Source of the DNA: Candidatus Harrisonbacteria bacterium
GTDB lineage: Bacteria; Patescibacteriota; Minisyncoccia; UBA6257; 02-FULL-45-10c
Length of the DNA: 64,000 nucleotides
Assembly: GCA_016192685.1 (NCBI GenBank)
Contig: JACPTS010000001.1
Coordinates: 458,628 to 522,627, forward strand
Reading direction: 5' to 3'
The position numbers and the translations under genes are program-made. A model generated the notes under the pieces. The model worked only from the letters and a program-made list of their open reading frames with translations, searched no databases and was not told the DNA's origin. Within the stretch, counting starts at the first letter, position 1; each line of letters opens with the position of its first letter. Below, piece after piece: positions 1-17,635 of the stretch.

Positions 1-1380
1 GCCAAACAGCAAAAAATTAACCTCGGGATTTACTTGATTACGCCGGGAGATTTTGATTTGGCGCTTCGGAAATACTCTCCTTATAAAGATGAGGTGGAAG
101 CGGCCATCCGTTCTTTGGATATCAAGCCGGGAAAGAAAGCCGCCTCCGGAGAGCGGCTGATTTTTTTGGAAGAAGGAGTGGCGGTATCCGAAGAGGCGCC
201 GATTATCCGGCTGGTCGCTTCTACTTTGAAAGAAGCGGTTAATCTGGGGGCTTCGGATATTCATATTGAACCGCAAAGATCCAAGTTGCGGATTCGTTTC
301 CGGATTGACGGCAATTTACAGGAAGTGAGCCAGATGCCGATTGAGCTTCATCAGCCGATTATTTCCCGGATTAAAGTGCTGGCGAATTTGAAATTGGATG
401 AGACCCGGATTCCGCAAGACGGCCGTTTTCGGAGCATTGTTTTTGGCCGGGATATTGATTTTCGGGTGGCGACTTTTCCGACGCCGGCCGGAGAAAAAGC
501 GGCTATTCGGGTGCTGGATCCGACTGTCGGTTTAAAGACGCTGGAAGATCTCGGCTTAACCGGCCGGAACGCGGAAATTCTTAAAGAAGCTCTGGCAGAG
601 CCGTACGGCCTGATTTTAATCACTGGACCGACCGGGTCCGGAAAAACTACCACCTTATACGCCTTGCTCCAGATTTTAAATAATATTCAATCTAATATCG
701 TCAGTTTGGAAGATCCGGTGGAGTATTTTATTGAGGGTGTTAACCAATCCCAGGTTCAACCGGAAATCGGTTATGATTTTGCTTCCGGTCTGCGCCAGAT
801 TCTCCGTCAGGACCCGGATGTGATTATGGTTGGCGAGGTAAGAGACACGGAAACTGCCCAGCTGACTATTCATGCCGCTCTTACCGGCCATATCGTGCTT
901 TCCACCCTGCATACCAACAACGCTGCCGGAGTTATTCCGCGTTTGGTTGATATGAAGGTAGATAGTTTTTTACTGCCGGCTTCTTTAAATGTGATGGTGG
1001 CGCAGAGATTGGTTTCCAAGCTTTGCCAAAAATGCAAAAAGCCGGAAGCGCCCAGCGCCAAAGTGGCGGATATTATCAAGAAAGAATTAGAATCTCTGCC
1101 GGCGGAATTAAAGGGAAAATATAAAGATTTAAAAATTTATCATTCTTCCGGCTGTAAAGCCTGCAATGATAAAGGAATCGCCGGCCGAATTGCCATTTTT
1201 GAAACATTAAAAATGACTCCCCAGCTGAAAGATATTATCAATGCCGGAGTTTCCGAAACGAAATTGGCAGAAGAGGCCAGGCATCAGGGAATGATTACTT
1301 TGCGGCAGGACGGAATTTTAAAGGCTTTGGATGGATTGGTGAGTATGGAGGAAGTGTTAAGGGAAACTGCGGAATTATAA
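1..1380 (+). CDS. pilB: Type IV pilus assembly ATPase PilB/GspE family (5' partial; reading frame open to window start)
   Basis: Walker A GPTGSGKTTT, Asp/His boxes, C-terminal tetracysteine CxxC...CxxC zinc motif; sits upstream of pilT/pilC. Confidence 0.85.
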   Translation, partial: AKQQKINLGIYLITPGDFDLALRKYSPYKDEVEAAIRSLDIKPGKKAASGERLIFLEEGVAVSEEAPIIRLVASTLKEAVNLGASDIHIEPQRSKLRIRFRIDGNLQEVSQMPIELHQPIISRIKVLANLKLDETRIPQDGRFRSIVFGRDIDFRVATFPTPAGEKAAIRVLDPTVGLKTLEDLGLTGRNAEILKEALAEPYGLILITGPTGSGKTTTLYALLQILNNIQSNIVSLEDPVEYFIEGVNQSQVQPEIGYDFASGLRQILRQDPDVIMVGEVRDTETAQLTIHAALTGHIVLSTLHTNNAAGVIPRLVDMKVDSFLLPASLNVMVAQRLVSKLCQKCKKPEAPSAKVADIIKKELESLPAELKGKYKDLKIYHSSGCKACNDKGIAGRIAIFETLKMTPQLKDIINAGVSETKLAEEARHQGMITLRQDGILKALDGLVSMEEVLRETAEL

Positions 1381-1395
1381 GTGTATAATTAGGAT

Positions 1396-2475
1396 ATGCC
1401 CGAAAATATTTATAAACAAAAATTAGATGAATTGCTTTTGACAACGGCGAAACATAATGCTTCTGATTTGCATTTGGCGGTTGGCCGGCGGCCGACTTTG
1501 CGGATTGACGGCGTATTAATCGGCCTTCAGAAAGAATCAGTTTTGACTCCGGAAGCCATGGAGGGTTTGGTGGATGCCCTTTTAACTCCGGAACAGCGAA
1601 GCAAATTTTTGGAAAATAAGCAGTTGGATTTCGCCCATTCTTACGAAGACAAGGCGAGATTCCGGGTGAATGTTTATTTTCAGCGGGGGTATCTGGCGGC
1701 GGCTTTGCGTTTGGTTCCGGCTCAGATTAAAACTATTGAAGAATTGAATTTGCCGCCGATTCTCCATGACTTTGCCCGGCTTTCCCAGGGATTTGTTTTA
1801 GTGGTAGGGCCGGCTGGCCACGGAAAATCAACGACCTTAGCCGCCATTTTAGATGAAATTAATCATCAGCGCACTGACCACATTATTACCGTAGAAGACC
1901 CGATTGAATATTTATTCACGCAGGATCGCTGCATTATTTCCCAGCGGGAGGTGAATAACGACACTTTAAGTTTTCATGACGCGCTTCGCACTTTGCTCAG
2001 GCAAGACCCCGATGTAGTGATGATCGGGGAAATGCGGGACCGGGAATCTATTGCCACGGCCATGACTGCCGCGGAAACCGGCCATCTGGTTTTTTCCACC
2101 CTGCATACCAATTCCGCTTCCCAGACCATTGACCGGATAATTGACAGTTTCCCGCCCGACCAGCAAACCCAGGTAGTTTCTCAGCTGGCGGCTACTTTGG
2201 TAGGAATTGTTTCTTCCCGCTTGGTGCCGCGCATTGACGGCGGCCGGATCCCAGCTTCGGAAATCATGCTGGTTAATTCCGCCATCCGTAATTTGATCCG
2301 GGAAAGAAAAACTTATCAGATTGATTTAGTAATTGAAACCAGTTTGCAGGAAGGAATGACTAATTTAAACCGTTCTTTGGCGGAATTAATCCGCCGCCGT
2401 GAAATTTCTCTGGAAAATGCCGAATTATATTCATTAAATCCGTCGGAATTGAGAATTTTATTAGAGCGAGCATGA
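1396..2475 (+). CDS. pilT: Twitching motility / pilus retraction ATPase PilT
   Basis: Walker A GPAGHGKSTT, ~360 aa PilT-size secretion ATPase with no N-terminal extension. Confidence 0.8.
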   Translation: MPENIYKQKLDELLLTTAKHNASDLHLAVGRRPTLRIDGVLIGLQKESVLTPEAMEGLVDALLTPEQRSKFLENKQLDFAHSYEDKARFRVNVYFQRGYLAAALRLVPAQIKTIEELNLPPILHDFARLSQGFVLVVGPAGHGKSTTLAAILDEINHQRTDHIITVEDPIEYLFTQDRCIISQREVNNDTLSFHDALRTLLRQDPDVVMIGEMRDRESIATAMTAAETGHLVFSTLHTNSASQTIDRIIDSFPPDQQTQVVSQLAATLVGIVSSRLVPRIDGGRIPASEIMLVNSAIRNLIRERKTYQIDLVIETSLQEGMTNLNRSLAELIRRREISLENAELYSLNPSELRILLERA

Positions 2476-3680
2476 AATTTAGATACAACGCCAGAACTAA
2501 ACAAGGAGAATTGCAGACCGGTTTTGTGGACGCGGCGAACCGCGACGCGGCTTTGAATATTTTAACCGGCCATGAGCTTTTTATTTTAAGCCTGGAAAGC
2601 GCCGAGACAATTCAATGGTATCAGAGATTTTTGGATTTATTTAAACGGGTGAAACCGGGCGATTTGATGATTTTTACCCGGCAATTGGCCACCCTGTTGG
2701 ACGCGAAGATTTCTTTGGCTGATTCTTTAAGAAATCTTTACAAACAGACCCGCAACCCGATTTTAAAAGAAACAATTTTTGAACTTTCTTCGGATATTGA
2801 TTCCGGACTTTCGCTGTCTCAGGCCATGGAGCGGCACCCGCATATTTTTTCGGAATTTTATACCAGTATGATCCGTTCCGCGGAAATAACCGGGCGTTTA
2901 GAGGAAGTCAGCGCTTTTATGGCGGATTATTTGGAAAAAGAAGTCGGCCTTTTGTCGCGGGTGCGGAATGCTCTTATTTATCCGGTTCTGGTGATAGTGC
3001 TTTTTACGGCGGTGGTGGGTATTATGGTAGGAGTGGTTTTCCCCCAGTTAGAGCCGATTTTCGCCGAATCGCAGGCGCCGGTTCCGGCAGTTACCAGAAT
3101 TTTGCTTGGCGCCGGCGGCTTTATCGCGGAATGGTGGCTGGCCCTGCTGGTAATCTTGGGAATCTTCATTTTTTTGGCGGTTGATTATTTAAATACGAAA
3201 GAAGGGAAAATTGTCTCTGATGAAATCCGGGTGCGCCTGCCGGTGATCGGCGATTTATACAAAAAACTTTATGTGGCCCGTTTTGCCGAATCAACCAGCG
3301 TTTTAATCCGGGGCGGCATTCCGATCGCCCAATCTTTGGAGATTTCCGGCCATAATATCGGCAGCATTATTTATCGGGACGCGCTTCATGAGGTTGCCGA
3401 AGCGGTGAGAGCCGGCCAACTGATGTCGCAAGCGTTGGCGGAACATGAAAATTATTTTCCGCCGCTGGTTTATCAGATGGTGGCAGTCGGCGAATCAACC
3501 GGCAAATTAGAAGCGTTATTATCGCGGATTTCTTCTTTTTACACGCGGGAGGTGGATGACACCGTTGCCAATTTAGTGGAATTAATCCAGCCGGCAATGA
3601 TGGTTGGCATCGGCGTTTTGGTGGCCATCCTTTTCGCGGCAGTGCTTTTGCCGATTTACAATCTCGCCCAATCTTTCTGA
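2472..3680 (+). CDS. pilC: Type IV pilus inner-membrane platform protein PilC/GspF
   Basis: ~400 aa, duplicated GspF domain pattern, 3 TM segments, 4-nt overlap with pilT. Confidence 0.8.
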   Translation: MKFRYNARTKQGELQTGFVDAANRDAALNILTGHELFILSLESAETIQWYQRFLDLFKRVKPGDLMIFTRQLATLLDAKISLADSLRNLYKQTRNPILKETIFELSSDIDSGLSLSQAMERHPHIFSEFYTSMIRSAEITGRLEEVSAFMADYLEKEVGLLSRVRNALIYPVLVIVLFTAVVGIMVGVVFPQLEPIFAESQAPVPAVTRILLGAGGFIAEWWLALLVILGIFIFLAVDYLNTKEGKIVSDEIRVRLPVIGDLYKKLYVARFAESTSVLIRGGIPIAQSLEISGHNIGSIIYRDALHEVAEAVRAGQLMSQALAEHENYFPPLVYQMVAVGESTGKLEALLSRISSFYTREVDDTVANLVELIQPAMMVGIGVLVAILFAAVLLPIYNLAQSF

Positions 3681-3700: not shown

Positions 3701-4165
3701 ATGAATTTAAATTCTAAAAAAGGTTTTACCCTTATAGAAACTTTAGTGGTTGTTTCCATTATCGGGCTTTTGTCATCGGTCTTTTTGGTCGGATTGGGCG
3801 GTTTTCGTTCCCGGGGCCGAGATGCCCGCCGCATTGCCGATTTGAGGCAGGTTCAAAACGCCTTGGAACTTTATTATTCTAAAAACAGCGCCTATCCGGC
3901 ATTAAGCTGTACCAGCTCCGGCAGTCGAACTTGCTGGGATGGTTTAGAAACAACTTTAGCTGGCGCGGGAATTGGAGTAGCCAAGATAGCCAACGACCCC
4001 AATTCCGCCCAAAGTTATATGTATGCTTCGGATGGCCAGAATTATACTTTAGGAGCTAGGTTTCAAGGCCAAGACCCGGTGTTGAATGATGATATAGACG
4101 GAACATCCAATGGAATTGATTGTATTGGCGGCTCTCCGGAAACGGTTTATTGCCTCCAATTTTAG
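3701..4165 (+). CDS. Type IV (pseudo)pilin, probable major pilin
   Basis: N-terminal prepilin signal KKGFTLIETLVVVSIIGLL (class III signal peptide with cleavage/methylation site). Confidence 0.8.
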   Translation: MNLNSKKGFTLIETLVVVSIIGLLSSVFLVGLGGFRSRGRDARRIADLRQVQNALELYYSKNSAYPALSCTSSGSRTCWDGLETTLAGAGIGVAKIANDPNSAQSYMYASDGQNYTLGARFQGQDPVLNDDIDGTSNGIDCIGGSPETVYCLQF

Positions 4166-4180: not shown

Positions 4181-5041
4181 ATGTTTACCGCCCTTCTACT
4201 TTTCAGCTTCGGTCTGGTTATCGGCAGTTTTTTAAATGTTGTCTCTTTCCGCTATTCGGAAGAAAAAAATTTATTCCATACCGAGCATTTAGGCGGCCGG
4301 TCAAAATGCCGGCATTGCGAACAGAAGCTCGCTTGGTATGAATTAGTGCCGGTTTTTAGTTTTCTTTTGCAAAAAGGCAAATGTTGGGTTTGTTATAAAA
4401 AATTATCCTGGCAGTATCTTTTGATGGAAGTTGCCGGCGGATTAATTTTTTTATTGCCGTTATATTTATACAACCCCATAATTCCAAATTCATTATTCAT
4501 AATTCAGAGCGCCATTTGGATTTTGGCGTTTCTTACCTTTTTGCTGATTTGGTCAATTGATTTCCGGCTTTATCTTATTCCGGATGAATTAAATCTGGTT
4601 TTAGGAGCATTGGGGCTGGTTCTGGCAGATTATACAAATCTTTACGGACAATTCGGGAATTTTAAAGGTTCTTTTTTAGGCAGTTACGCCGCCCTTTTCG
4701 GCTGGCGGAGCAATATTTGGATTAATCATTTTTCTGCCGCCCTAATCGGCGGGGCGCTGGTTGGACTGATTATTTTTTTATCCAAAGGAAAGGGCATGGG
4801 AATGGGGGATTTAAAAATGATGCTGGCGCTTGGGCTTCTTTACGGATGGCCGGATGTTTTATTTATTTTTATAATTGCTTCGGTAATCGGAGCCGCCGCA
4901 AGCTTGGCGCTGATGCTGTTTCACAAAAAAACTTTGAAAGATGCTTTACCTTTCGGGCCATTTTTAGTAATCGGAGCAATCTTAGTCTTTTTTTGGGGAG
5001 AAGCGATTTTAAGGAGTTATTTTAACTTCTTCGGGCTCTAA
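4181..5041 (+). CDS. pilD: Prepilin peptidase (A24 family)
   Basis: N-terminal CxxC...CxxC zinc motif, multi-TM, conserved Asp-containing GDLKMM motif. Confidence 0.8.
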   Translation: MFTALLLFSFGLVIGSFLNVVSFRYSEEKNLFHTEHLGGRSKCRHCEQKLAWYELVPVFSFLLQKGKCWVCYKKLSWQYLLMEVAGGLIFLLPLYLYNPIIPNSLFIIQSAIWILAFLTFLLIWSIDFRLYLIPDELNLVLGALGLVLADYTNLYGQFGNFKGSFLGSYAALFGWRSNIWINHFSAALIGGALVGLIIFLSKGKGMGMGDLKMMLALGLLYGWPDVLFIFIIASVIGAAASLALMLFHKKTLKDALPFGPFLVIGAILVFFWGEAILRSYFNFFGL

Positions 5042-5057: not shown

Positions 5058-5576
5058 ATGATTGATAAGAATTTTGGCTTCACCCTTGTTGAGATATTGG
5101 TTACTTTAGCTATTACCTCGCTTTTAGTCGGAGTTTTAATAACTTATAATCGCACTGGCGGCCTCCAAATTCTTATTTTTAAGGACCAGGCCAGAGTTAT
5201 TAATATGGTTTTGCGCGCGAAAAGTTTGGCAGTTCAAATTTTCAGCCAATCAATCCCGGTCTGCGGCTATGGCGTCCACTTTGATTCCGTTAATAAATCC
5301 TTTATCCTTTTTAAGGATTTAGCCGATCCCTGCTCCGGTTCCGATAATCGTTATTCCGGTTCAACGGAAGATTTAGAAATAATTAATTTAGATTCCCAAC
5401 TAAAATTTTCCAATTTGGAATTAACGGATATTTTATTTATTCCGCCGGAGCCGATCGTCATCATTGACGGCGATTCCGGTAAAAGCGGGGATTTTCTTAT
5501 TGAATTAGACACGATAAGAGGCGGCAGTCCGAAAATAATTAAGGTCAATAATTTCGGTCAAGTAAGCACTCAATGA
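5058..5576 (+). CDS. Minor pilin / pseudopilin with prepilin-type N-terminus
   Basis: GFTLVEILVTLAITSLLVG N-terminal methylation motif. Confidence 0.6.
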   Translation: MIDKNFGFTLVEILVTLAITSLLVGVLITYNRTGGLQILIFKDQARVINMVLRAKSLAVQIFSQSIPVCGYGVHFDSVNKSFILFKDLADPCSGSDNRYSGSTEDLEIINLDSQLKFSNLELTDILFIPPEPIVIIDGDSGKSGDFLIELDTIRGGSPKIIKVNNFGQVSTQ

Positions 5577-6070
5577 GAACCCATCTTAAAAATAGCTCAT
5601 CCGAATCCGGCCAGTTGATGGTAGAGTCTATCATTGCTATTTCCGTTTTGATAATTGGCTTGTTGGGCATTTTCACCTTGCTTTCCCGCTCCCTAAGCTT
5701 AAATCGGGTAATTGCTGACCAATCCGCGGCAACTCATTTAGCCGCGGAAGGAATTGAGCTGGTGAAAAATTTAATTGACGCTAACGCTATTCAGCGGCGG
5801 CCATGGAATCTAGGTGTTAATCCCGGAGATTATGAGGTGGATTTTAATGACGGCGCTTTAGCAGTTCCTCAAAATCGTAAATTGGATTTTGATTCCGGGT
5901 CTGGCCAGTACAGCTATGACTCCGGCTCGCCAACGACTTTTCAGCGTTTAATCGTCATTAGCCAGCCAAGTCCGGATGAGCTCAAAGTTAATTCTTTAGT
6001 TAAATGGACCACCCGGGGCGGCGGGCAATTTGAGGTCAATTTAGAGGATCATTTCTTTAATTGGAGATAA
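5573..6070 (+). CDS. PilV-like type IV pilus minor pilin
   Basis: N-terminal hydrophobic prepilin-like segment ESIIAISVLIIGLLGIFTLL, operon position. Confidence 0.5.
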   Translation: MRTHLKNSSSESGQLMVESIIAISVLIIGLLGIFTLLSRSLSLNRVIADQSAATHLAAEGIELVKNLIDANAIQRRPWNLGVNPGDYEVDFNDGALAVPQNRKLDFDSGSGQYSYDSGSPTTFQRLIVISQPSPDELKVNSLVKWTTRGGGQFEVNLEDHFFNWR

Positions 6071-6071
6071 T

Positions 6072-6551
6072 ATGAAAAATTCTGGTTTCACCATTGTAGA
6101 ATTATTGGTAGCCATTACTCTTTTTTCCGTTATTGTTGCCATTGCCACCGGCACTTTTATCCAGGCTTTGCGGACTCAGAGAGGGGCGGCGGGTTTAATC
6201 GCGGCCAATAGCAATGCCAGTCTGGCCATAGAACAGATAAGCCGGGAAATTAGGACCGGAAGAGCTTTTTCTTTAAGCGGCGGAGTATTGAATTTTACCA
6301 ATGCCAAGGAACAGGCCGTTTCGTATCGCTTAAACAATGAATCCATTGAAAGGATAGTTGGCGGCGAGGCGGGGATTATTACCGCCGCTAACGCGAAAGT
6401 CGCTAAATTAAATTTCATTTTGGCCGGCGAAAGTTCCACTGACGGCTTGCCGACTAAGATTACCGTGATATTGGAAATCGGAGCGCCGGAAGCGGCCGGA
6501 GCGAAAATTAATCTGCAAACCACCGTCAGTTCCAGAATTTTGGAGGGTTAA
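6072..6551 (+). CDS. Minor pilin / pseudopilin (PilW/GspJ-like)
   Basis: GFTIVELLVAITLFSVIVAIATG prepilin N-terminus. Confidence 0.6.
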   Translation: MKNSGFTIVELLVAITLFSVIVAIATGTFIQALRTQRGAAGLIAANSNASLAIEQISREIRTGRAFSLSGGVLNFTNAKEQAVSYRLNNESIERIVGGEAGIITAANAKVAKLNFILAGESSTDGLPTKITVILEIGAPEAAGAKINLQTTVSSRILEG

Positions 6552-6680
6552 ATTTTCAAAAGCCGATTTTGGTAAGCGGAATTAAAGATTATGCCGGAGT
6601 TTTTTATCCGGACGGCACGGAAATTTTAGGGTATCCAGATAACGTAATTTCTTTTATGAATGTGGAGATAAAATTTTAAT

Positions 6681-6709
6681 TTGACAAAAATTAGATATTA
6701 GATTAGTAT
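6681..6709 (+). promoter_or_regulatory. Candidate sigma70-like promoter (TTGACA, 17-nt spacer, TAGTAT)
   Basis: ttgaca at 6681-6686, tagtat at 6704-6709; precedes a hairpin leader and a small ORF. Confidence 0.3.
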
Positions 6710-6780
6710 ATAAATACTGCAGGGTGGCGTTAGGCGCTATACCCGCAGTTTGTACTTTGTAGCAAAAGGAGTTAGTAGTC

Positions 6781-6876: not shown

Positions 6877-6881
6877 GTAAG

Positions 6882-6915: not shown

Positions 6916-6929
6916 TAATTTAGATAAAT

Positions 6930-8257: not shown

Positions 8258-8857
8258 ATGAAAGGCTTGCTTGCCGGATTCTTGATGCTGGCTGGTTTTT
8301 TTAGCGCCGAGGCCGCAGATTGGAATTTTCGGTCTGGTCCGGCATTGGCGACTGCCAAAATTGAGGGCACCGAGACGAGTCTGTCTGGATGGACCGTTGA
8401 TGTGTATCGCTTATCTCACCGGAAGTATATTTCTTGGGGTCTGGGGCTTAAAAATCTCTCGGCAGGGATGTATCGCTATACTGGAGGAGATGTGCTGCTG
8501 GGATATTATTCGGATAAAACCAATATGAAAAAAGTCAGTTGGCATATTTCGATAGCGGGCGGTTTGGGGATATTATCGGGTTTGCCAAGTGGTTATTCTA
8601 AATTGCCGGCGGTAAGCTCAGCCGCGCCTGGGAAACAACGCTTGAAATTTCCTTCGGTGTCAGGGCGTGGCGGAATGAATTTTGGGATTAACTACCTGGT
8701 CAAGCCGCCTAAAGATGGCAGTAAATCTTTTCTGGCTTTGACTTTTGACTTGGATAATGGAAGAATCGGTCAAGAGGTTTTTACTTCAGCAAATATTAAA
8801 ACTGATTTTAACTTAGATTATTACGCCCCGATGCTGGGATTAATTTTTTATTGGTAG
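8258..8857 (+). CDS. Secreted hypothetical protein (signal peptide; C-terminus ends ...LIFYW)
   Basis: N-terminal signal MKGLLAGFLMLAGFFSAEA; aromatic C-terminus is beta-barrel-like. Confidence 0.4.
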   Translation: MKGLLAGFLMLAGFFSAEAADWNFRSGPALATAKIEGTETSLSGWTVDVYRLSHRKYISWGLGLKNLSAGMYRYTGGDVLLGYYSDKTNMKKVSWHISIAGGLGILSGLPSGYSKLPAVSSAAPGKQRLKFPSVSGRGGMNFGINYLVKPPKDGSKSFLALTFDLDNGRIGQEVFTSANIKTDFNLDYYAPMLGLIFYW

Positions 8858-8909: not shown

Positions 8910-10808
8910 ATGATTATGGGGATGTCTTCAAAAAATTTTTTTAAAGAAATTTTTTTGGCTTTATTTTTGGTTTTACTTTTTTCCAGTCCCGGAATTGCCG
9001 AGGCTCATTGCAAATGGAGTCATCCGCACCATTGCGTTACTCAAACAGTTGATAATTTTGGTCAGGTAGTTAGTAATATTACAGCTGTCACTGTTAATTT
9101 TTTTATTACTGCTTATAATGTTACCGTGAATGTTGTAGCGGTGGCGTGGGATATGACTGTTGTAGTGGGAACTGGAGGAATTGCTTGCGTGGCAGGCGTG
9201 GATTGCGACGTTCTACTTAGAGACGCGGGTTGCCGAATCAACGATTTAACTCAAGATCCGCGTCACCTCCGTTGTTTTGAGCAAGGAGGAATTTTAACTA
9301 TTGGCGAGATAGCGATTGACGCTCCTGCTTGTTTGGCCGCCGGCGCCGAGCTGACTTTTTATGATGCGGGGCCGCGTTCTCCGGACGAAAAAAATTCCAC
9401 GGTTCAGATTTATCGTTTTACCCTGCCTCAAACCGAGCGTTATTATCCGGTTGGCGGCTTAACCGATGAACAAGCCCAAAACGCGGCAGTGATGAATTGG
9501 ATGGCTGGCCTTGATAATCAAGTCGGCAACGGCCTTATCAGCCCTTATGATTTTATTAAAGAAAGCAGTTATTTTTTGGCCAAAGGAGCCGCGGCCGCGC
9601 CGTTAGTGGAAGTTCCGTACAATAAAGTTTGCGGCGCGAGCGGCGTTTGCAGAATTCGGGACCAAGCCCTGCCCAAAGATAAATTTTTCGCTTATATCGC
9701 GAAAACTGCCGCTGATTACGCGTTAACTATTCCCAAAGGAGCAGTTTATCAGCTTCAGGGTGAATGTCCGGTTGGTAATAGCAGTTACACGACTGGCGGG
9801 AAGATTTATTGCGTAGATGAAGCGGGCCAATACAACTTTAACACTTATAAATTGATGTATTTCTTTATCAGCGATCAGGGCGGCAGAAGGGCGGAAGCGC
9901 GCTACGAAGCTCCGCCTGGCGGCTATGAAAATTCCGACGGGGATTGGGTTCCTTGGTTCGGAGAGCCAAAGTGGTTCATTATTGACGCTAACGGCAAAAG
10001 GATTGACGCGGCTATTGACGCTTCTTTGCTGGAAGACAAAGAAACATCAGAAATTTCCGGCATTAAAAATAATTACGGCAATTATTATTTTAAATTCACG
10101 GAAGATTTCTTTTTTCGGCGGCAAGGAAAATTTTTAAGCGCCAAATCCGGCCAGCCGGTAACGGACACCTATATCGGTTCCCCATTTAATTTGGTTAACG
10201 GCAACGGCATTTTCGGGCCGTTTAAACCGATTGCCGAGACGGCTTGCCCGCCGATTCCGGCGCCAACCGTTATTAGCCAAACCTGCAACGCGGTTACTCT
10301 GGAATCAAAAGAATCAAAGCCACTTAATGTTCTTAGGCGGGTTAAGGGCGATACAGGCGGTTTTATTTTGGCGGGCCAATTTGATTTTTCCGGCGGCAGA
10401 ATTTTTACCGATGCCAATCTTCAGCCGCATACCAATTATGAATATGCTTTGGTGCCGGCTGCCGCGGATGCGGGAACAGTGGTTCAGAATGACCAAATAA
10501 TTGAGGCTTATACTTTTTGCCGGCCAAGTTGCAAAATTTTATCTGAATCTGCCGCCATACCCGAGTTAGGCTCGGCAGATTTAAAGTGGCAGTGTGCTTC
10601 CGATACGGTTCCGATTTCCTGCCAGGTTCAATCCGATGACCGTAAAATCGGCGTTAAATCCGGTTTGAATTCCGCTGGTTCGTTGAAAGTTTCTCCGTCT
10701 GATGATTCCCGATATATTTTAACTTGTATGAATGTTGACGGTTCGGTTACGCTTACGCCGTTTAAGGTTAATATATTGAAGCCCGGTATAAAAGAAGTAA
10801 AGCCATGA
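8910..10808 (+). CDS. Large secreted Cys-rich hypothetical protein
   Basis: Signal peptide, many Cys, no recognisable catalytic motif. Confidence 0.4.
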   Translation: MIMGMSSKNFFKEIFLALFLVLLFSSPGIAEAHCKWSHPHHCVTQTVDNFGQVVSNITAVTVNFFITAYNVTVNVVAVAWDMTVVVGTGGIACVAGVDCDVLLRDAGCRINDLTQDPRHLRCFEQGGILTIGEIAIDAPACLAAGAELTFYDAGPRSPDEKNSTVQIYRFTLPQTERYYPVGGLTDEQAQNAAVMNWMAGLDNQVGNGLISPYDFIKESSYFLAKGAAAAPLVEVPYNKVCGASGVCRIRDQALPKDKFFAYIAKTAADYALTIPKGAVYQLQGECPVGNSSYTTGGKIYCVDEAGQYNFNTYKLMYFFISDQGGRRAEARYEAPPGGYENSDGDWVPWFGEPKWFIIDANGKRIDAAIDASLLEDKETSEISGIKNNYGNYYFKFTEDFFFRRQGKFLSAKSGQPVTDTYIGSPFNLVNGNGIFGPFKPIAETACPPIPAPTVISQTCNAVTLESKESKPLNVLRRVKGDTGGFILAGQFDFSGGRIFTDANLQPHTNYEYALVPAAADAGTVVQNDQIIEAYTFCRPSCKILSESAAIPELGSADLKWQCASDTVPISCQVQSDDRKIGVKSGLNSAGSLKVSPSDDSRYILTCMNVDGSVTLTPFKVNILKPGIKEVKP

Positions 10809-11173
10809 AGGGGCAAGTGATGCTTATAACAGTTTTAGTTCTTTCCGGAACTATTTTGGGGGCAACGGCGATTGCCGGCCTTTTGATGGTTTATCAATTG
10901 CGCCAGTCCAATGATGTCATAAATTCCAATAAAGCGATTTTTGCCGCGGATTCCGGAATTGAATGGCGGCTGTATAAATTTTTTAAAGCCGACAGCCAGA
11001 TTTGCAAAGAATGTCCGGACGGCGGCGTTTGCCCGGGACCCAATTTTGAAAATGGCGCCAGTTTTCAGACTACCTGCGAGCTTTTAGGGGGCGGCGCTGT
11101 CCCAACCGTTAAAGTAAAATCCACCGGCACTGCCGGCAACAATTCCAGGGCTTTTGAAATTATTTTACAGTAA
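10805..11173 (+). CDS. PilX-N-like pilus-associated membrane protein
   Basis: N-terminal TM LITVLVLSGTILGATAIAGLLMVYQLRQS resembles the PilX N-terminal domain; overlaps the downstream S8 gene start. Confidence 0.35.
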   Translation: MKGQVMLITVLVLSGTILGATAIAGLLMVYQLRQSNDVINSNKAIFAADSGIEWRLYKFFKADSQICKECPDGGVCPGPNFENGASFQTTCELLGGGAVPTVKVKSTGTAGNNSRAFEIILQ

Positions 11174-14018
11174 AAAGATTTTGTCCATGAAGCATTTTCT
11201 CATATTTATAATAATTATTTTGATTATCGGTTTTTTCAGCATTGCCGCGACGTGGTTTTTTGAGTATCGCCTGCGATGGCCGGTTGTTTCTTATTTTTTT
11301 TCCGGTTTTGACAGTTGGGAAATGGTTAAGTATCCGAAAAGAGTTATGCTGACTTTGGAAAATTGGAGCGATGCCGAGCAAGCCGCCGCTTTAATTAAAA
11401 AAAACGGCGGGCAGATTATCAAGCTCGTTCATTGGCCGGAAAAAAATGTTGTGATAGCCCTGCTTCCCGATAAAGACGCGGAGCAAATTATCCGCCGGGA
11501 CGCTTTCTGGGGCGGAATCGTTGGTTTTTTCGGTTTTACCGGTGCGGGAAATAAAATCGGAGGCGGTATTGATTCCGTGATTACCGATGGAAAGGTTTCC
11601 GCTGATTCCGCGCAGGTTCCCAATTGGGGCGTTTTGAGAATTAAAGCCAATGAAGCTTGGGCCATGAGCCGCGGCTCGGGCGTTCGCATAGCGTTATTGG
11701 ACAGCGGGATTCAGCGCGACCATCCGGATCTGGCCGCGAATATTAAAGGAGGAATTAATTTTATTGCCGGATTGGGCGCTGACCAATGGGGTGATGACGG
11801 TGGCCACGGAACGCATGTCGCCGGAATTATCGCGGCGCTGGATAATGATTTTGGCGTTGTCGGCGCAGCGCCGGAGGCAAATTTATTCGGGGTTAAGGTG
11901 CTGGACGGGGCTGGCAGCGGATATTGGAGCGATGTGATATCCGGAATTTATTGGGCCGTGGAGAATAACATGAAAATCGCCAATATTAGCTTGGGCGGCC
12001 CGCAGGGATTTGATGAATTAAAAAACGCGGTTGATTACGCTTATCAGCACGGAGTTTTGCTGGTTGCGTCTGCCGGAAACAACGGCGCCAGCGGCGGAGC
12101 AGTCAGTTATCCGGGCGCTTATGATTCCGTGATTGCAGTTTCGGCGACTATTCCGGACGACCGTCTGGCTTCCTTTAGTTCGTACGGGCCTCAGGTTGAA
12201 TTAGCCGCTCCGGGTTCCGAGATTAACTCCACTTCCAATAATAGTTTATATTCCGCGCTTAGCGGCACTTCTTTAGCCGCCCCTTTTGTAAGCGGAGCCG
12301 CCGCGCTGGTATGGGCGAAGAACCCTCAATTTACCGCGGTTCAGGTTCGGGAACAATTGCGCGCCACGGCGATTGATTTGGGAATGCCCGGAAAAGATAA
12401 TCAATACGGATACGGTTTGGTTAATGGGCGGGAGAGCGTGATTGCCAGATTGCCGGCATCGCTGATTTTACTTTCTCCGCGGGGCGGCGAGCAATGGCAG
12501 CAGGGTACGCTTCATAATATTTTTTGGTCTTCGCAAAATTTGAACCAAAATGAAAATGTTGACATCAATTTAATCAGGCAATACACCGTTTATGACGATT
12601 TGTGGGATTCTGCCGGAGTAGTCAGCAGCGGAGGCGCCAGCGCCGGGGCGCAATGCGACCAGTTTTTGTCAACTTATAATCGTATTTACGCTCCCAACGA
12701 AAGATATTCTATTAATACCCACAGGCCGCATTGCACTTTTAATAAATTTATACGGAGGCAGGTTGTCCGGGAGGCTGTGGAAGCAATCAGTATTGCCAAA
12801 GGAACAATTAATGACGGAATGGAAGAGTGGGCCGTGCCGGCTGATTTGCCGCCCGAAGGCCGATATTTTGTTGAGGTAAAATGCGGACAAGATTTTGTCG
12901 GCGTCTGCCAGCCGGGAAAAAGTTCCGAATTCAGTATCGCGTTTACGCCTCCGCAGTCATTTTCAATTCTTTTTCCCAATGGCGGGGAGCAATGGCCGTT
13001 GGGAAGTTCTCAGTCGGTAATTTGGTCTTCCTCATATTACGGTTTAGTCGGCGTGGACATCAGTTTATTTCAAAACAAGAGCACACCTCAATATTCGCTT
13101 GAAAAAGAAATCGGCAGCCCCTGGGTTGGCATTGGAAGCGCGGCTAATCCGGACACTTGCGACGGCAACAGAGCCTCGCGCGAGAATGGCGGGGTCTATG
13201 CCTGCCCGGCAACTAATTCCAACGGGAGTTTTACTTGTTCGGATATCGCGGAATCGCGCGATACTGCCGGATATTATTTCCAGCGGGAGGTGGCCTGTTC
13301 TTATTTGGTGTCCGGCACGACTGATACCTTGGAATTGGTCCGGCTTCTGGAATCCGGCATTAATAATGACGGTTCGGAAATAATTGTTATTCCGGCGGAT
13401 TTGCCGTTAAGCGACCAATATTTCATACAGGTCGGCTGTTCCCGATTTTCCGGTTCCTGCGTTCCCGGCAGGAGCGGGCAAGCGCTAAGCATTGTCAGCG
13501 ATAGTCCCGCCGGTTTATCTATTTTATCTTCCGGCGGAAATGAGCAGTGGCAGGCGGGAAAAATGCAAACAGTCAGCTGGCAGAGCGTTGATTATCCGTC
13601 AGACGGAACCGTTGATATTTATCTCTTGAAAAAGACAACCGGCGCGCTCCGCTCTTTTTTGAACGTCATTACCTTTGACGCGATTAAGGATTATGAAATA
13701 TTTAAGCCTTTAATGCTGGAGGCTCCTAATACCGGAAGGGCAATGATTATTGTTCCGGAGGATATTAATGCCGGAGATGAATATTTAATTCAGATTGTTT
13801 GCGGTAAGAATACTCTGCGGGCTCCCTGCCATGGCGATATCAGCGATAAACCATTTCGCATTTTAGCCCCGAATTTTGATAATTCTTCCGAAGAGAGAAA
13901 TTTTTCTGTTCCTTACGTTGCTTCCACTACTATAATTAATAATCAGACCCGATTTCCATATCGCAGGGCTGTTCAGCCTTCAAAATTAAAACCCGGATTT
14001 TATGAAATTCGTCCTTAA
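11154..14018 (+). CDS. Membrane-anchored subtilisin-like serine protease (S8) with I9-like propeptide and C-terminal repeated GGEQW beta-sandwich domains
   Basis: Catalytic D (DSGIQRDHPDL), H (HGTHVAGIIAA) and S (GTSLAAPFVSGAAAL) motifs; N-terminal TM; three GGEQW...W repeats. Confidence 0.8.
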   Translation: MKLFYSKKILSMKHFLIFIIIILIIGFFSIAATWFFEYRLRWPVVSYFFSGFDSWEMVKYPKRVMLTLENWSDAEQAAALIKKNGGQIIKLVHWPEKNVVIALLPDKDAEQIIRRDAFWGGIVGFFGFTGAGNKIGGGIDSVITDGKVSADSAQVPNWGVLRIKANEAWAMSRGSGVRIALLDSGIQRDHPDLAANIKGGINFIAGLGADQWGDDGGHGTHVAGIIAALDNDFGVVGAAPEANLFGVKVLDGAGSGYWSDVISGIYWAVENNMKIANISLGGPQGFDELKNAVDYAYQHGVLLVASAGNNGASGGAVSYPGAYDSVIAVSATIPDDRLASFSSYGPQVELAAPGSEINSTSNNSLYSALSGTSLAAPFVSGAAALVWAKNPQFTAVQVREQLRATAIDLGMPGKDNQYGYGLVNGRESVIARLPASLILLSPRGGEQWQQGTLHNIFWSSQNLNQNENVDINLIRQYTVYDDLWDSAGVVSSGGASAGAQCDQFLSTYNRIYAPNERYSINTHRPHCTFNKFIRRQVVREAVEAISIAKGTINDGMEEWAVPADLPPEGRYFVEVKCGQDFVGVCQPGKSSEFSIAFTPPQSFSILFPNGGEQWPLGSSQSVIWSSSYYGLVGVDISLFQNKSTPQYSLEKEIGSPWVGIGSAANPDTCDGNRASRENGGVYACPATNSNGSFTCSDIAESRDTAGYYFQREVACSYLVSGTTDTLELVRLLESGINNDGSEIIVIPADLPLSDQYFIQVGCSRFSGSCVPGRSGQALSIVSDSPAGLSILSSGGNEQWQAGKMQTVSWQSVDYPSDGTVDIYLLKKTTGALRSFLNVITFDAIKDYEIFKPLMLEAPNTGRAMIIVPEDINAGDEYLIQIVCGKNTLRAPCHGDISDKPFRILAPNFDNSSEERNFSVPYVASTTIINNQTRFPYRRAVQPSKLKPGFYEIRP

Positions 14019-14056: not shown

Positions 14057-14893
14057 ATGGGCAGAAACAGAAGGGGCTATATAATGGTATCTTTGGCGAT
14101 GGCTTTGTTATTTTTTAATGGGCTGGCAGAGGCCGCTTACGAGGTGAAAGTTAATCTTAATACTCTTGGCGGCGGGACAGGCCGGGTTATTTTTTCCGCG
14201 ACTTCGTCCCGCGATTTTGAATTTTCCGGCTGGTCCGGCGAATCCTGCATAGGCAAAGGACTTTGCGTTCTTGGAGATCTTATTCCGAAAAGTTCTAAAA
14301 TAGTAATCGCCAGCTTTAACGCGCCGCTGTGCACTGAATTTACTTATTCTGATTTCGGCGCCTGCCAATTGGACGGCACGGCGCGGAGAACCGTCACATC
14401 TGCCGGTCCGCTGGGGTGCGTTGGCGGGGATCCGGTAACCAGCCGGGGATGTTTTTATGACCCTTGCGCCAGAGCCCAGACCACAGAAGTGACAGAGCCT
14501 AGTTTGTGGGAAAGGTTTAAGGATATGGTGGGTTCGGTGCAACAAGGTGATTATAAGGAAGCGCTTGATAAAGCTGTTGATTTAGTTACTGGAGGCGGCA
14601 AAAAAGAGCCCCTCTTGGAGATTCCGTCAAGTTTCCCGCCGGGCGGGGGCGCTGGCGGCCCTTCTCAATATGAAGTGGATGTTAGCGACACGACGGTCAT
14701 TCCTGTTTCCGGACCTAAGCCCGAACCTCTTTATGAGCTTCCTGATATTATAATTACTGCTCCTCGTTATGTTGAACCCAAGCCCGAGACTGAGCTTCCT
14801 GATATTATAATTACTGCTCCTCGTGATAAGCCCGGATTTGATTTTCAGTTTGATACTAGTTTTACAGCAGATCCAGGTGTTCGGTGCAAGTAA
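14057..14893 (+). CDS. Secreted hypothetical protein with tandem ELPDIIITAPR repeats
   Basis: Signal peptide; 33-nt DNA unit gagcttcctgatattataattactgctcctcgt present twice. Confidence 0.4.
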   Translation: MGRNRRGYIMVSLAMALLFFNGLAEAAYEVKVNLNTLGGGTGRVIFSATSSRDFEFSGWSGESCIGKGLCVLGDLIPKSSKIVIASFNAPLCTEFTYSDFGACQLDGTARRTVTSAGPLGCVGGDPVTSRGCFYDPCARAQTTEVTEPSLWERFKDMVGSVQQGDYKEALDKAVDLVTGGGKKEPLLEIPSSFPPGGGAGGPSQYEVDVSDTTVIPVSGPKPEPLYELPDIIITAPRYVEPKPETELPDIIITAPRDKPGFDFQFDTSFTADPGVRCK

Positions 14894-14902
14894 GGATTTA
14901 TT

Positions 14903-17635
14903 ATGAACTCGCAAAAAATCATTTTTGTAATATTTTGCATTATCGCAATCGTCATTGCTTTATTTGTAATTAATAAAATTGAAACTGCCCCCCAGCAAGT
15001 TCCAGTTACAACACAGCTAACAGCGTGGGAAATACCGGCGCCAGCACCGCCAACCAAAGCATTGGCTCCGGCCGGCAAAGAAACTCCTCTGGAAAAAGAA
15101 TATCCCAGGCAAGTAATGATTGGATTGCGAGCTTGGAGCGATGTGGAATCCGCGAAGAAAATCATTACTGATAATGGCGGACAAATAATCAAAACTTTGA
15201 AATGGCCGGCCAAAAATGTCATTATCGCGGTCCTGCCGGATAAGAATGTAGAACAGAAAATTCTGAAAAATTCTTTTTGGGGAAAGTTAATCGGAGGAAT
15301 CGGGCTGACTTCTTTGGGAAATAAATTAAGCGGCGGCGTGGATTACGTGGAAAAAGATTTGAAAGTCCCGGCGCAAGCCATTAATCCCATTGATTGGGGA
15401 GTGGCGCGCATTAAGGCGGATAAAGTATGGAATGCGAGTACGGGCAAAGGCGTGAAAGTGGCGGTTATTGATTCCGGCATTCAGCGCGACCATCCGGACT
15501 TGGTTGCCAATATTAAAGGAGGAATCAGTTTTATGCCCGGTTCGCCGGCTCAATGGGATGACGAAGGCGGCCATGGCACTAAAGTCGCCGGCTTAATCGC
15601 CGCCGTGAATAATGATATTGGTTATGTTGGTGTTGCGCCGGAAGCCGATATCTACGCGGTAAAAGTCATGGGTAAAGACGGCCTGGCCGCCACCAGCGAT
15701 ATGATTTCCGGAATTTATTGGGCCGCGGACAATGGGATGGATGTTGTTAATTTGAGCCTTGGCGTCTATATGGACCCTGTTATATATAGTAAGACTATCG
15801 CGGAAGAAAAGGCGGCAGTGGATTATGCTTATTCGCGCGGCGTTGTCCTTATAGCTTCTTCCGGCAATGAGCCAAAAGATGGGCCGGATTGCGACAAGGT
15901 TATTTATCCCGCGGCGCTTGACGCGGTTATCGCGGTGGGCGCGACTGCCCCGGATAATACTGTCGTTGATTTCAGCTGTCATGGTCCGGAGGTTGAGCTG
16001 GCTGCTCCGGGGCTTTTTAATAATGTTCCGGTTATGGGAAGTTCTTATGGTTATGGCAACGGCACTTCCATAGCCGCTCCTTTTGTGTCAGGAGTGGCGG
16101 CGCTTATTTTACAAAAAAATCCTCAATTTACTCCGTCAGAGGTTCGCGAGCGGCTGGATTCCACCGCGGTTGATTTTGGCGCGCCCGGCAGAGATGAATA
16201 CTTTGGCTATGGATTGGTAAACGCGTATGACAGCTTGTTTCCTCCGGTTTTGCCCGTAACCATTACTCTTATCTATCCAAAAGGAGGAGAAAAGTGGTGG
16301 GAAGGCACGCAGCAGAAAGTTAGTTGGAGCGTGGCTAATGTGCCCAGCGGCGAAAAAGTGGATAAAGTGGATATTCAATTGATTCGCCAATCCGGCGGCA
16401 CAATCGAAACCATTCCCCTTGCCTTGGACGCGGTTAATAATGGCAGTTTATTATTGAATGTTCCTTCCGGATTGTTGGTTACCGGCGCGTCTGACAGTTA
16501 TTATCTTCAAGTAAGCTGCGCGAAATCATTTGTCGGAAAATGCCAGCCGGCTAAAAGCGGGCCATTGGATATTACGGCCGTGCCTCCGCAGGCGTTAAAA
16601 ATTATTTCTCCCAACGGAGGCGAGCAGTGGCCGCAGGGGACAATTCAATCCGTGTTGTGGACAGGAAATTATTTTGGCGGGCCGAATGTTGATATTACTC
16701 TTTTGAAAAAAACGCAGATATCGCAGTATTCTCTTAGTTTTCAGAGTCCGGAATCTTGGTATGGGGGCGGTATTTGGGACCCGCGGGGCATAGATACTTG
16801 TAACGGTAATTTTGGCAAGCGCGTTGACGGCGGAGTTTTTTCTTGTCCCGCAACTTATTCATCCGACAGTTTTTCTTGCGTAGATGTCGCTACGGACAAA
16901 AGCGTGTCAGGATGGTACTGGAAAACAAATGTTACTTGCGCATATAAACAAACAGGTTTAACTGACGCGACTACCCCAGTACAAACACTTGCGGCAAATA
17001 TTATAAATAAAGGCTCGGCGGAAATTGCCGTGCCCAGCGATGCGGAGGGAAATAATTATCTTATCCAATTAAGCTGCGCCAATTTTACCGGAGAATGCGC
17101 TAAAGGATTAAGCAACGCTCCATTCAGCATTATCCGTTTGGCGGACCCGGTAGTTCTTACTATCAATAAATTCGGCGCCGGCGCGGTAACTGACGGAAAT
17201 ATTATTTGCGGCAGCAGCAGGGATGCTTGTTTAGAAAATTATGAAAGAGGAACCGCGGTAACTTTATCTGCCGCGTCAACAAATCCTATCGTAATATTTA
17301 CCGGCTGGTCCGGAGCTTGCAGCGGCACCGGAACCTGCCAGGTTACCATGGGCGGGGACCAGTCAGTAACTGCCACGTTTTCCGTGAGAGCGGTAACTCT
17401 TATCGCGGAGGCGGATCCGGGCTCAATATTTACCGGCTGGTCCGGAGCTTGCAGCGGCACCGGAACCTGCCAGGTTACAAGCGACCAACAATCAGTTACG
17501 GCTAATTTTATTAAAAGCCAGGTTATTCAGACGCCGCCACCTCCATCGCCTTCGTCACCGTCTCCGTCTCCGTCTCCGCCGCCAGCCGCTCCAAGTCCAT
17601 TTACTCCAGTGCAACTTCGCGAAGTTAAGCCGTAA
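14903..17635 (+). CDS. Second membrane-anchored S8 subtilisin paralog with C-terminal FTGWSGACSGTGTCQVT repeats and Pro/Ser-rich tail
   Basis: DSGIQRDHPDL, HGTKVAGLIAA, GTSIAAPFVSGVAAL; same domain order as 11154..14018; 50-nt exact DNA repeat at 17291-17340 and 17421-17470. Confidence 0.8.
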   Translation: MNSQKIIFVIFCIIAIVIALFVINKIETAPQQVPVTTQLTAWEIPAPAPPTKALAPAGKETPLEKEYPRQVMIGLRAWSDVESAKKIITDNGGQIIKTLKWPAKNVIIAVLPDKNVEQKILKNSFWGKLIGGIGLTSLGNKLSGGVDYVEKDLKVPAQAINPIDWGVARIKADKVWNASTGKGVKVAVIDSGIQRDHPDLVANIKGGISFMPGSPAQWDDEGGHGTKVAGLIAAVNNDIGYVGVAPEADIYAVKVMGKDGLAATSDMISGIYWAADNGMDVVNLSLGVYMDPVIYSKTIAEEKAAVDYAYSRGVVLIASSGNEPKDGPDCDKVIYPAALDAVIAVGATAPDNTVVDFSCHGPEVELAAPGLFNNVPVMGSSYGYGNGTSIAAPFVSGVAALILQKNPQFTPSEVRERLDSTAVDFGAPGRDEYFGYGLVNAYDSLFPPVLPVTITLIYPKGGEKWWEGTQQKVSWSVANVPSGEKVDKVDIQLIRQSGGTIETIPLALDAVNNGSLLLNVPSGLLVTGASDSYYLQVSCAKSFVGKCQPAKSGPLDITAVPPQALKIISPNGGEQWPQGTIQSVLWTGNYFGGPNVDITLLKKTQISQYSLSFQSPESWYGGGIWDPRGIDTCNGNFGKRVDGGVFSCPATYSSDSFSCVDVATDKSVSGWYWKTNVTCAYKQTGLTDATTPVQTLAANIINKGSAEIAVPSDAEGNNYLIQLSCANFTGECAKGLSNAPFSIIRLADPVVLTINKFGAGAVTDGNIICGSSRDACLENYERGTAVTLSAASTNPIVIFTGWSGACSGTGTCQVTMGGDQSVTATFSVRAVTLIAEADPGSIFTGWSGACSGTGTCQVTSDQQSVTANFIKSQVIQTPPPPSPSSPSPSPSPPPAAPSPFTPVQLREVKP

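Follow-up and report, generated by a model that had tools for sequence, protein, structure and literature searches.

Why do two subtilisins stand directly behind the minor pilin genes of a type IV pilus (T4P) cluster in an ultrasmall bacterium belonging to the CPR (candidate phyla radiation, or Patescibacteria)? The question is raised by a 64,000-nucleotide stretch of the metagenome-assembled genome of a Candidatus Harrisonbacteria bacterium (contig JACPTS010000001.1 of assembly GCA_016192685.1, positions 458,628 to 522,627; hereafter the window), in which genes for a secreted protein (p632), a PilX-like pilin, a subtilisin (S8-A), a second secreted protein (p278) and another subtilisin (S8-B) follow one another on the same strand. 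CPR bacteria account for much of bacterial diversity and live in attachment to other microbes, with type IV pili as their best-supported organelle of host interaction. An initial annotation of the locus proposed a pilus-associated proteolytic or adhesive apparatus from gene proximity. That linkage is kept in several relatives, and both proteases share an extreme C-terminal tail with p632, which suggests a physical association of protease and pilus. The shared tail turns the argument from co-localization into a specific docking hypothesis, in which p632 is a PilY1-like tip protein and both subtilisins dock by the same C-terminal strand on the PilX-like pilin. We give this reading somewhat less than an even chance, at roughly 45%.

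The observation that carries the hypothesis concerns the last residues of three proteins. The 632-amino acid (aa) p632 (8922..10808; coordinates given without a locus name are those of the window, on its forward strand unless stated otherwise) ends in LKPGIKEVKP, S8-A (11154..14018) in LKPGFYEIRP and S8-B (14903..17635) in PVQLREVKP. The tails PGIKEVKP-COOH, PGFYEIRP-COOH and VQLREVKP-COOH are encoded at 10782..10805, 13992..14015 and 17609..17632, respectively, the last behind a PSPS stalk. The tail consensus is Φ-x-E-[VI]-x-P-COOH, and in p632 and both subtilisins it extends over ~8–10 residues as (P-G)-x-Φ-[KRY]-E-[VI]-[KRN]-P-COOH. Apart from p632, S8-A and S8-B, no open reading frame (ORF) of 60 aa or more in the window has [KR]P as its ending.

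The same ending recurs in relatives. Related loci were collected through exact look-ups, a genome scan with a family-specific propeptide (a 5-sequence alignment, which yielded 4 useful loci) and a metagenome scan with the tail domain. The motif lies within 0–4 residues of the C-terminus in 38 of 46 non-self p632 homologues (...PG[IL]KE[VI][KR]P). It is likewise present in 10 of 12 close relatives of the S8 proteins, including P0003, P0005, P0007, P0008, P0009 and those of loci L010, L011 and L013, always behind a Ser/Pro/Gly-rich linker, compared with 0 of 110 generic subtilisins (~110 were retrieved). Among 533 ORFs of at least 80 aa from the window and the related loci, the motif is confined to proteins of the S8 and p632 families. 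What is new here, as far as sequence can tell, is thus a family-crossing C-terminal peptide that links two subtilisins to a putative, PilX-adjacent tip-protein family.

Because the tail codons differ among p632, S8-A and S8-B (CCA/CCT/CCG; GTA/ATT/GTT), and because a strong intrinsic-terminator hairpin with a 19-bp stem (17641..17682) lies behind S8-B, between it and the convergent gene for p369, the tail is conserved at the protein level. A reading as a Shine-Dalgarno sequence or DNA repeat was rejected on these grounds, the element after S8-B being a terminator and not a gene, and also because the tail is kept in S8 genes that are unlinked to pili. In the AlphaFold2 (AF2) model of S8-B the tail is disordered, and so is not docked intramolecularly.

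The p632 protein is secreted and Cys-rich, as the initial annotation had it, and consists of a variable body, a conserved C-terminal Ig-like domain and the tail. It has no match in Pfam or NCBIfam at E ≤ 0.1. A word-indexed search returned only p632 itself, and its apparent status as an orphan was discarded when an exhaustive phmmer search gave 47 proteins, most of them aligned to residues 445–628 and on to their own C-termini. The conserved portion of the family is a ~90-aa four-Cys Ig-like domain followed by the tail, while the bodies range in size between 280 and 980 aa; that of P0123 holds a Kelch propeller, whose repeats are not a PilY1 domain, and fn3-like domains occur elsewhere. A profile search of the C-terminal domain against PDB sequences returned nothing meaningful. 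A second, transmembrane-like hydrophobic segment follows the signal peptide directly in 29 of 41 members. A Glu or Asp at +5 past the predicted signal-peptidase site was considered as a pilin-like feature of the family and set aside, as a crude site predictor placed one there in only 15 of 41. Separately, a subset of the family (window 8922–9230, P0124, P0125, P0158 and L021:1073–3148) carries a His/Cys-rich motif, AEA↓HCKW(S/Y/N)HPHHC, after the predicted signal cleavage site, which from its residues looks metal-binding.

A gene of the p632 family lies upstream of a PilX-like gene in 10 of 12 informative loci, directly so in the window, L010, L016, L017, L020, L021/23, L022, L026 and L027 and within 2.1 kb in L024. 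The two genes are often coupled in translation, with an ATGA overlap in four loci. Loci L018 and L019 end too early to judge this adjacency. Since p632 is a Sec-exported non-pilin with a variable head and a conserved extreme C-terminus, and adjoins the cap pilin, it can be read as a putative PilY1/MshQ-like tip protein; by this analogy we infer that the family acts like PilY1 or MshQ without belonging to either family.

The neighboring PilX/GspK-like cap minor pilin (122 aa; 10805..11173), whose ATG overlaps the p632 stop codon (ATGA), has the prepilin site MKG↓QVMLI and lacks Glu at +5, as do cap pilins of the GspK, PilK and PilX type. Its family is highly conserved (alignment A11). Its initial description as PilX_N-like survives in part: PilX_N (PF14341) matches eight of 11 family members at E ≤ 10 and is the top family in those eight, and all of the matches are sub-threshold (best E = 0.0017; window protein, E = 0.19). 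A profile search of the family against PDB sequences gave nothing meaningful. Several relatives extend past the usual end ...RAFEIILQ, by 8 aa (KDYKMEKE) in L008:23202–23756, by ~95 Cys-rich aa in L027:1001–1666 and by 6 aa in L022:1869–2321. The L008 cluster, home of the 8-aa extension, lacks any tail-bearing gene, and that extension could be a strand supplied in cis.

Both proteases are subtilisins by several measures. S8-A comprises an N-terminal hydrophobic anchor, an I9-like propeptide, the S8 domain, three GGEQW Ig-like domains and the tail (Pfam S8, 214 bits; Kre9_KNH, E = 2e-15). S8-B comprises an anchor, a Pro-rich linker, an I9-like propeptide, the S8 domain, two GGEQW Ig-like domains, a Cys insert, Flg_new_2 repeats, the PSPS stalk and the tail (Pfam S8, 206 bits, with Flg_new_2 and Kre9_KNH). 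The two are indeed paralogues, 44% identical in alignment A1 and 48% over the best local match, with D190, H224, N322 and S389 (an Asp-His-Ser triad in subtilisin order plus the oxyanion Asn) invariant in A1, and they are 40–47% identical to subtilisins. S8-A is an extra paralogue that is absent from L026. An identification as type VII secretion system mycosins (TIGR03921) was rejected, since the scores of 226 and 243 bits fall below the equivalog cutoff of 278.75, the only anchor is N-terminal and no ESX genes lie nearby.

The Pfam I9 model itself does not match either protein, and the I9-like propeptides first noted from sequence are borne out by other means. Residues 72–441 of S8-B align by phmmer to residues 11–360 of pro-subtilisin E (3whi), propeptide included; 3whi is also the top Foldseek match of the S8-B model, over 382 columns, and residues 69–151 adopt a βαββαβ arrangement in the AF2 model, with a predicted local distance difference test score (pLDDT) of about 80. 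That full-length model, built with nine sequences, is mediocre overall (pLDDT 61.5, with a poorly modelled catalytic domain), leaving the propeptide and β-domains (pLDDT about 80) as its usable parts, and its Foldseek matches are to subtilisins only and uninformative on the C-terminal domains. Each protease has one hydrophobic segment, at the N-terminus (Kyte-Doolittle 2.97 and 3.34). The membrane anchoring first proposed is upheld for that segment and is not supported for the mature state, because I9 cleavage would detach the enzyme.

C-terminal to the catalytic domain, the repeated GGEQW β domains correspond to the Pfam Kre9_KNH Ig-like family, with three motif copies in S8-A and two in S8-B, and the FTGWSG repeats of S8-B to Flg_new_2 or InlB B-repeats. 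The exact duplication and the PSPS stalk described earlier are both readable in S8-B, with corrections: FTGWSGACSGTGTCQVT occurs there in two exact copies, not three, and the duplicated DNA measures 54 nt, not 50 nt (17293–17346 = 17425–17478, within 17293..17478), encoding IFTGWSGACSGTGTCQVT. A third, degenerate copy (FSGWSGESCIGKGLC) is located in p278. Whether the PilX-like gene overlaps S8-A is decided by the start codon of the latter: TTG 11154 gives a 20-nt overlap, and ATG 11187, chosen in public gene calls, a 13-nt gap. The overlap may be real because the longer N-terminus, FYSKKIL, resembles the FWSLRKII of family N-termini.

Between the proteases lies p278 (14057..14893), a secreted Cys-rich protein whose N-terminal domain is InlB-B-repeat-like and is followed by a low-complexity body and a Cys close to the C-terminus (alignment A7). 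A p278-like gene always stands 1–18 nt upstream of the S8 gene (L007, L008/L012, L011, L013, L014, L026, L027, L028 and L029), and its products share a signal peptide, the InlB-repeat-like domain, a low-complexity body and a Cys 1–3 residues from the C-terminus. In the window the successive gaps from p632 through the PilX-like gene, S8-A and p278 to S8-B are −4, −20 or 13, 38 and 9 nt. Most p278-family proteins end in ...PC[RQ][KQ]-COOH (members include L007:8977–9999, L008:9016–9984 and L011:8633–9754). The body of the window protein contains an internal ELPDIIITAPR repeat, encoded by a 37-nt direct repeat that is 97% identical (14734–14770 and 14791–14827), and its N-terminal domain is similar to the Flg_new_2 repeats found in the protease encoded next.

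The usual gene order in relatives is pilB-pilT-pilC-pilin-pilD-mp1-mp2-mp3-[variable]-p632-like-pilX-ligA, where mp1 to mp3 are minor pilins. Conservation of gene order, the check proposed at the outset, holds for the pair of p278-like and S8 genes, which is found at three different places within the T4P cluster. In the window, L010, L020, L026 and L027 it follows pilX, in L011 it separates mp3 from pilX, and in L008/L012 it separates mp1 from mp2. Linkage kept across three arrangements argues for selection over frozen synteny. In L011 the S8 gene occupies the p632 slot between mp3 and pilX, and it is the sole tail-bearing gene of the pilB-to-ligA cluster. In L027 a gene with a GIY-YIG nuclease domain (1696–1953; 85 aa) lies between the PilX-like gene and the p278-S8 pair, and it may mark mobility of the protease cassette.

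A model for how such tails might work comes from a recent study of PilC/PilY1, in which the last ~10 residues form a β-strand that completes the sheet of a PilK/PilX-type cap pilin and lies hidden where PilJ and PilK meet (Ellison, Litt et al., 2026; 10.64898/2026.02.14.705861). Assembly of the pilus and retention of the adhesin at its tip both need this strand, which is partly sufficient for them; MshQ was identified as an analogue, on the basis of synteny next to a PilK homologue and a C-terminal strand, and strand completion was modelled for it; GspK and CpaL carry such a strand in cis; and cargo of the type II secretion system (T2SS) shows no strand complementation on PilK (10.64898/2026.02.14.705861). 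With tip proteins docked by a C-terminal strand thus described in 2026, the earlier statement that no such coupling is on record is not supported. The likeness of p632 to PilC/PilY1 and MshQ lies in its being a large Sec-exported non-pilin, encoded in a minor-pilin operon beside a cap pilin, with a variable head, a conserved C-terminal part and a conserved end of ~10 residues. It differs in lacking a β-propeller, the conserved part being a four-Cys Ig-like domain, and in its gene order, p632 lying upstream of the cap pilin and theirs downstream. It differs further in its setting, a CPR bacterium without a secretin, and in sharing its tail with subtilisins.

We hypothesize that the tail is a trans-acting C-terminal β-strand that would complete the small β-sheet of the PilX/PilK-type cap pilin. 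The p632 protein would then be a PilY1-like tip protein that pairs a variable head with a conserved end for docking. As both subtilisins carry this peptide on a flexible stalk, the simplest inference is that they dock at the p632 site, and the two would be alternative or additional cargo on the same tip complex. In subtilisins the I9 propeptide is removed autocatalytically. The proteases may therefore be made as zymogens held in the membrane by their N-terminal helix, in which case propeptide removal would cut this tether and the C-terminal strand would be the sole retention device left. An enzyme so detached would be lost without a retention device at its C-terminus. Pilus extension could then carry the active protease, together with its Ig-like and InlB-repeat binding domains, to the surface of a host or prey cell, with p278 as a co-translated secreted partner of the protease and the nearby M16 peptidase as an unrelated insertion. 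The fuller proposal, of a retractile pilus whose interchangeable heads are joined to a minimal PilX-type cap pilin by a common docking strand, with an active subtilisin as one of them (a protease-tipped pilus), is a tentative one that we consider doubtful as it stands.

Several observations weigh against docking at the tip. First, the PilX-like protein already ends in the β-strand-like RAFEIILQ, so that a requirement for a strand in trans is not evident from its sequence. Second, no PilY1/PilC β-propeller is found in p632 by Pfam. Third, the correlation of genes has exceptions: the S8 protein of L008/L012 is encoded in a T4P cluster and lacks the tail, no T4P gene lies in the flanks of the tail-bearing S8 pairs of L007 and L013, which means that T4P linkage is not obligatory, and L025 has a p632-like gene with no PilX-like gene in the 5.7 kb downstream. 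Fourth, the loci all belong to a single, rather narrow clade, in which PilT is about 80% identical, and some of the synteny may therefore be inherited. Finally, the sampled neighborhoods are biased toward T4P loci, and a general anchoring role of the tail across the genome is compatible with them.

That last point defines the main alternative, that the tail is a general tag for retention or sorting at the cell surface (through an S-layer, the wall, a barrel such as the p199 protein described below or an unknown transpeptidase), the T4P locus a hotspot of envelope genes and the proteases scavengers of nutrients at the cell surface. The position of the tail behind a flexible stalk does recall wall-sorting signals, tailed S8 genes occur away from pili in L007 and L013, the stretch from pilD to ligA is highly variable in relatives and has the character of a surface island, and p199-type barrels neighbor p632-like genes (window, L018 and L020, with related barrels in L019, L021 and L025). 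A tag of general use is, however, at odds with the restriction of the motif to two families among the 533 ORFs, other large secreted proteins of the same islands, such as a 1408-aa protein of L008, lacking it. Nor does the tail look like a known signal: it comprises the last 6–10 residues with no transmembrane helix or basic tail after it, unlike known CTERM signals, there is no Pfam or NCBIfam sorting-domain match (LPXTG, PEP-CTERM, GlyGly-CTERM, PGF-CTERM and others), and the genes of the region include none that resembles a sortase. The tight coupling of p632 to pilX, with its ATGA overlap, would also go unexplained. We regard this alternative as unlikely.

A second possibility is that the pilus serves as a secretion device, by a T2SS-like piston or as in Dichelobacter nodosus, with the tail as a transient recognition signal and the proteases released. 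In D. nodosus, type IV fimbriae are needed for secretion of the subtilases AprV2, AprV5 and BprV (PMC3480457). Here the proteases are co-transcribed with the cap pilin, and OmpW-like barrels and Lnt-like genes in these loci hint at an extra envelope layer to be crossed. In a presumed monoderm without a secretin, however, Sec export should suffice, and each protease comes with a Sec-type signal or anchor at its own N-terminus. In addition, T2SS cargo lacks strand complementation on PilK (10.64898/2026.02.14.705861), and the same tail occurs on adhesin-like p632-family architectures with Kelch or fn3 domains, all of which makes a secretion role improbable. Lastly, the idea that there is no functional link at all, the S8 cassette being a mobile surface-protease module in the T4P locus and its tail a structural remnant or a product of local recombination, finds some support in the pairs outside T4P loci (L007, L013), in the single clade of the linked loci and in the local gene turnover implied by the absence of the S8-A paralogue from L026, but it has very little room given a linkage kept across three gene orders, a tail kept at the protein level through synonymous codon changes, even in the unlinked S8 proteins of L007 and L013, at about 45% protein identity, and an S8 gene that fills the p632 slot in L011, so that pure coincidence is unlikely.

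Three other systems bear comparison with docking of p632 and the subtilisins at the pilus tip. D. nodosus also couples T4P to S8 subtilisins with pro-regions and C-terminal extensions (PMC3480457). Its proteases, however, are released by an unknown mechanism, and no shared C-terminal tag or tip docking has been described. Its protease genes also lie outside the pilus locus. The PilX1 and PilX2 proteins of the Saccharibacteria strain TM7x offer a patescibacterial T4P in which host binding is ascribed to a large tip protein with a lectin-like or propeller domain and no PilD-type signal (PMC11623550). There the functional domain is fused to a minor pilin, whereas here the PilX-like protein is minimal (122 aa) and the tail-sharing polypeptides are separate. 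In the Kil Tad pilus of Myxococcus xanthus the tip modules are interchangeable, so that different domains can be presented to prey or host (PMC12075869). Those tips are alternative minor-pilin complexes of a Tad (T4c) pilus, and neither a protease head nor a shared C-terminal peptide has been described for them.

The T4P cluster that surrounds these genes is itself ordinary for CPR bacteria, and its gene assignments in the initial annotation are upheld by Pfam and NCBIfam matches and by readable prepilin sites, weakly so for mp2. The window from 1 to 18.8 kb covers the right-hand, distal part of the cluster, and its left edge falls within the extension ATPase gene pilB (34..1380; Pfam T2SSE, 428 bits), which has lost its 5' end and encodes 448 aa here compared with at least 576 aa in L001, where the copy carries an MshEN domain. 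It is followed by the retraction ATPase gene pilT (1396..2475; T2SSE, 151 bits; 80–82% identity to the L008, L011 and L025 counterparts), the platform gene pilC (2472..3680; Pfam T2SSF, two stretches matched), the major pilin (3701..4165; MNLNSKKG↓FTLIE; Pfam N_methyl, NCBIfam IV_pilin_GFxxxE and a weak likeness to GspG) and the prepilin peptidase gene pilD (4181..5041; Pfam A24_N_bact and Peptidase_A24).

Next come the minor pilins mp1 (5058..5576; NFG↓FTLVE; Pfam N_methyl, with orthologues at the same position in L011, L017, L019 and L025), PilV-like mp2 (5573..6070; ESG↓QLMVE; NCBIfam type_IV_pilV at E = 7.7e-4, below cutoff, with a single N-terminal hydrophobic helix and syntenic orthologues) and mp3 (6072..6551; NSG↓FTIVE; Pfam N_methyl and a weak ComGF match). 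The cluster thus has extension and retraction ATPases, a platform protein, a prepilin peptidase and a major pilin whose signal is of class III (G↓F-x-x-x-E), as well as the full set of four core minor pilins, mp1, mp2 and mp3 with Glu at +5 and the PilX-like cap pilin without it. No secretin is seen in the region, in agreement with the earlier note. The further claim that pilMNO are missing does not follow, as the window begins inside pilB and the related locus L011 has a PilO homologue (27 bits; gathering score 22) upstream of pilB.

Between mp3 and the M16 gene lies a 380-nt gap of low G+C content (6552–6929) with promoter-like sites at 6681–6709 and 6892–6919, an AT-rich hairpin with a 12-bp stem at 6882–6909 and, in public gene calls, a 31-aa ORF; it looks like the junction of an insertion that brought M16. 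The M16 zinc peptidase (6930..8162) has both Pfam halves (Peptidase_M16 and M16_C) and the HGFEH motif, which confirms it as a peptidase. Its place in a surface module is another matter, since it has no signal peptide or hydrophobic segment, and no homologue was detected in the T4P clusters of L008, L011, L017, L019 and L025, the only one beyond the window being in the close-relative contig L010. M16 is probably cytoplasmic and outside the system.

On the far side of S8-B, p369 (17687..18796, reverse strand) has an LSGC lipobox and is predicted to be a lipoprotein. HEMLH and HEMLY mark its two repeated domains, and a weak SprT-like match covers the HExxH region; going by these motifs, it may be a surface metallopeptidase. 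It is kept between the S8 gene and ligA in L026 (5591–6232, reverse strand; 58% identical), and L007 has a weaker relative (3–989, reverse strand) at a distance of ~9 kb from its S8 gene. The end of the surface module is at ~18.8 kb, and ligA (18918) forms the right border of the cluster, with the housekeeping genes GatB, PheT, GyrB, ThrRS, DnaE, FtsH and SMC beyond it; G+C content across the region is 37–49%. LigA itself (18918–21113) has a basic, Ser/Pro/Gly-rich insertion of ~42 residues at residues ~109–150, just before the KxDG adenylation motif, that is missing from the 67%-identical orthologue in L017. The highly variable region between pilD and ligA in relatives holds Lnt-like genes, OMP-like (outer membrane protein-like) barrels, giant fn3/Fib_succ proteins, a spermidine synthase and an aromatic amino-acid lyase.

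The other secreted protein foreseen at the locus, p199 (8258..8857; 199 aa), is predicted by AF2 and Foldseek to be an 8-stranded β-barrel of the OmpW/OmpX/OprG type. Its model (pLDDT 85.6; predicted template-modelling score 0.77) has eight long strands and matches OprG (2x27, E = 1.4e-5), OmpW, NspA and OmpX at a probability of 1.00 and template-modelling scores of 0.4–0.6. With these barrels it shares a signal peptide, an aromatic residue at the C-terminus and strands of alternating hydrophobicity; it differs from them in having no match to the Pfam OMP families, in a host presumed monoderm and in belonging to a tiny, T4P-tied family (8 matches in 5.8 billion proteins). Homologues adjoin p632-like genes in L018 and L020 and lie within the same T4P cluster in L010 and L017. 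The gene is flanked by a promoter-like site (8165–8193) and a hairpin (8866–8891), both of which appear from the sequence to be its own.

Related loci hold further small secreted barrels of the OMP type in their T4P clusters (L019:6373–7011, L021 and L025:10426–10980). Comparison of the p199 subfamily with the related-locus barrels by hhalign is weak (60% probability over 29 columns), and two of these barrels, L008:14656–15534 and 20756–21628 (both on the reverse strand), exceed the Pfam OMP_b-brl gathering score. Lnt-like genes, similar to those for apolipoprotein N-acyltransferase (LNT_N plus CN_hydrolase), stand between the minor pilins and the p632-like gene in L017:5444–6991 and L025:7856–9214, with CN_hydrolase alone in L019:3830–5053 and resemblance at the N-terminus only in L020:576–1946 and L022:1–474 (reverse strand); the corresponding stretch of the window has M16 instead. 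Because Patescibacteria are treated as monoderm (PMC12102498), OmpW-like barrels and Lnt-like genes are unexpected here. Insertion of the predicted barrel into a second membrane, the host's or the bacterium's own, as might also be suggested by the Lnt-like genes of relatives, is a further and less likely extension of the protease-tipped pilus proposal; if true, it would challenge a strictly monoderm picture of these CPR bacteria. The presence of such genes in pilus loci raises a separate question about the architecture of the Parcubacteria envelope.

If docking of p632 and the subtilisins on the cap pilin is correct, the licensing role of the PilY1 C-terminal strand would reach a monoderm group of deep branching and also proteins that lack a PilY1 domain, and the shared C-terminal peptide would offer a searchable handle for listing tip cargo across uncultivated lineages. 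A protease-tipped pilus, should it exist, would be the first instance of a pilus tip that delivers an enzyme in place of an adhesin, and would allow surface proteins of the host or prey to be cut for attachment, envelope breaching or peptide harvesting.

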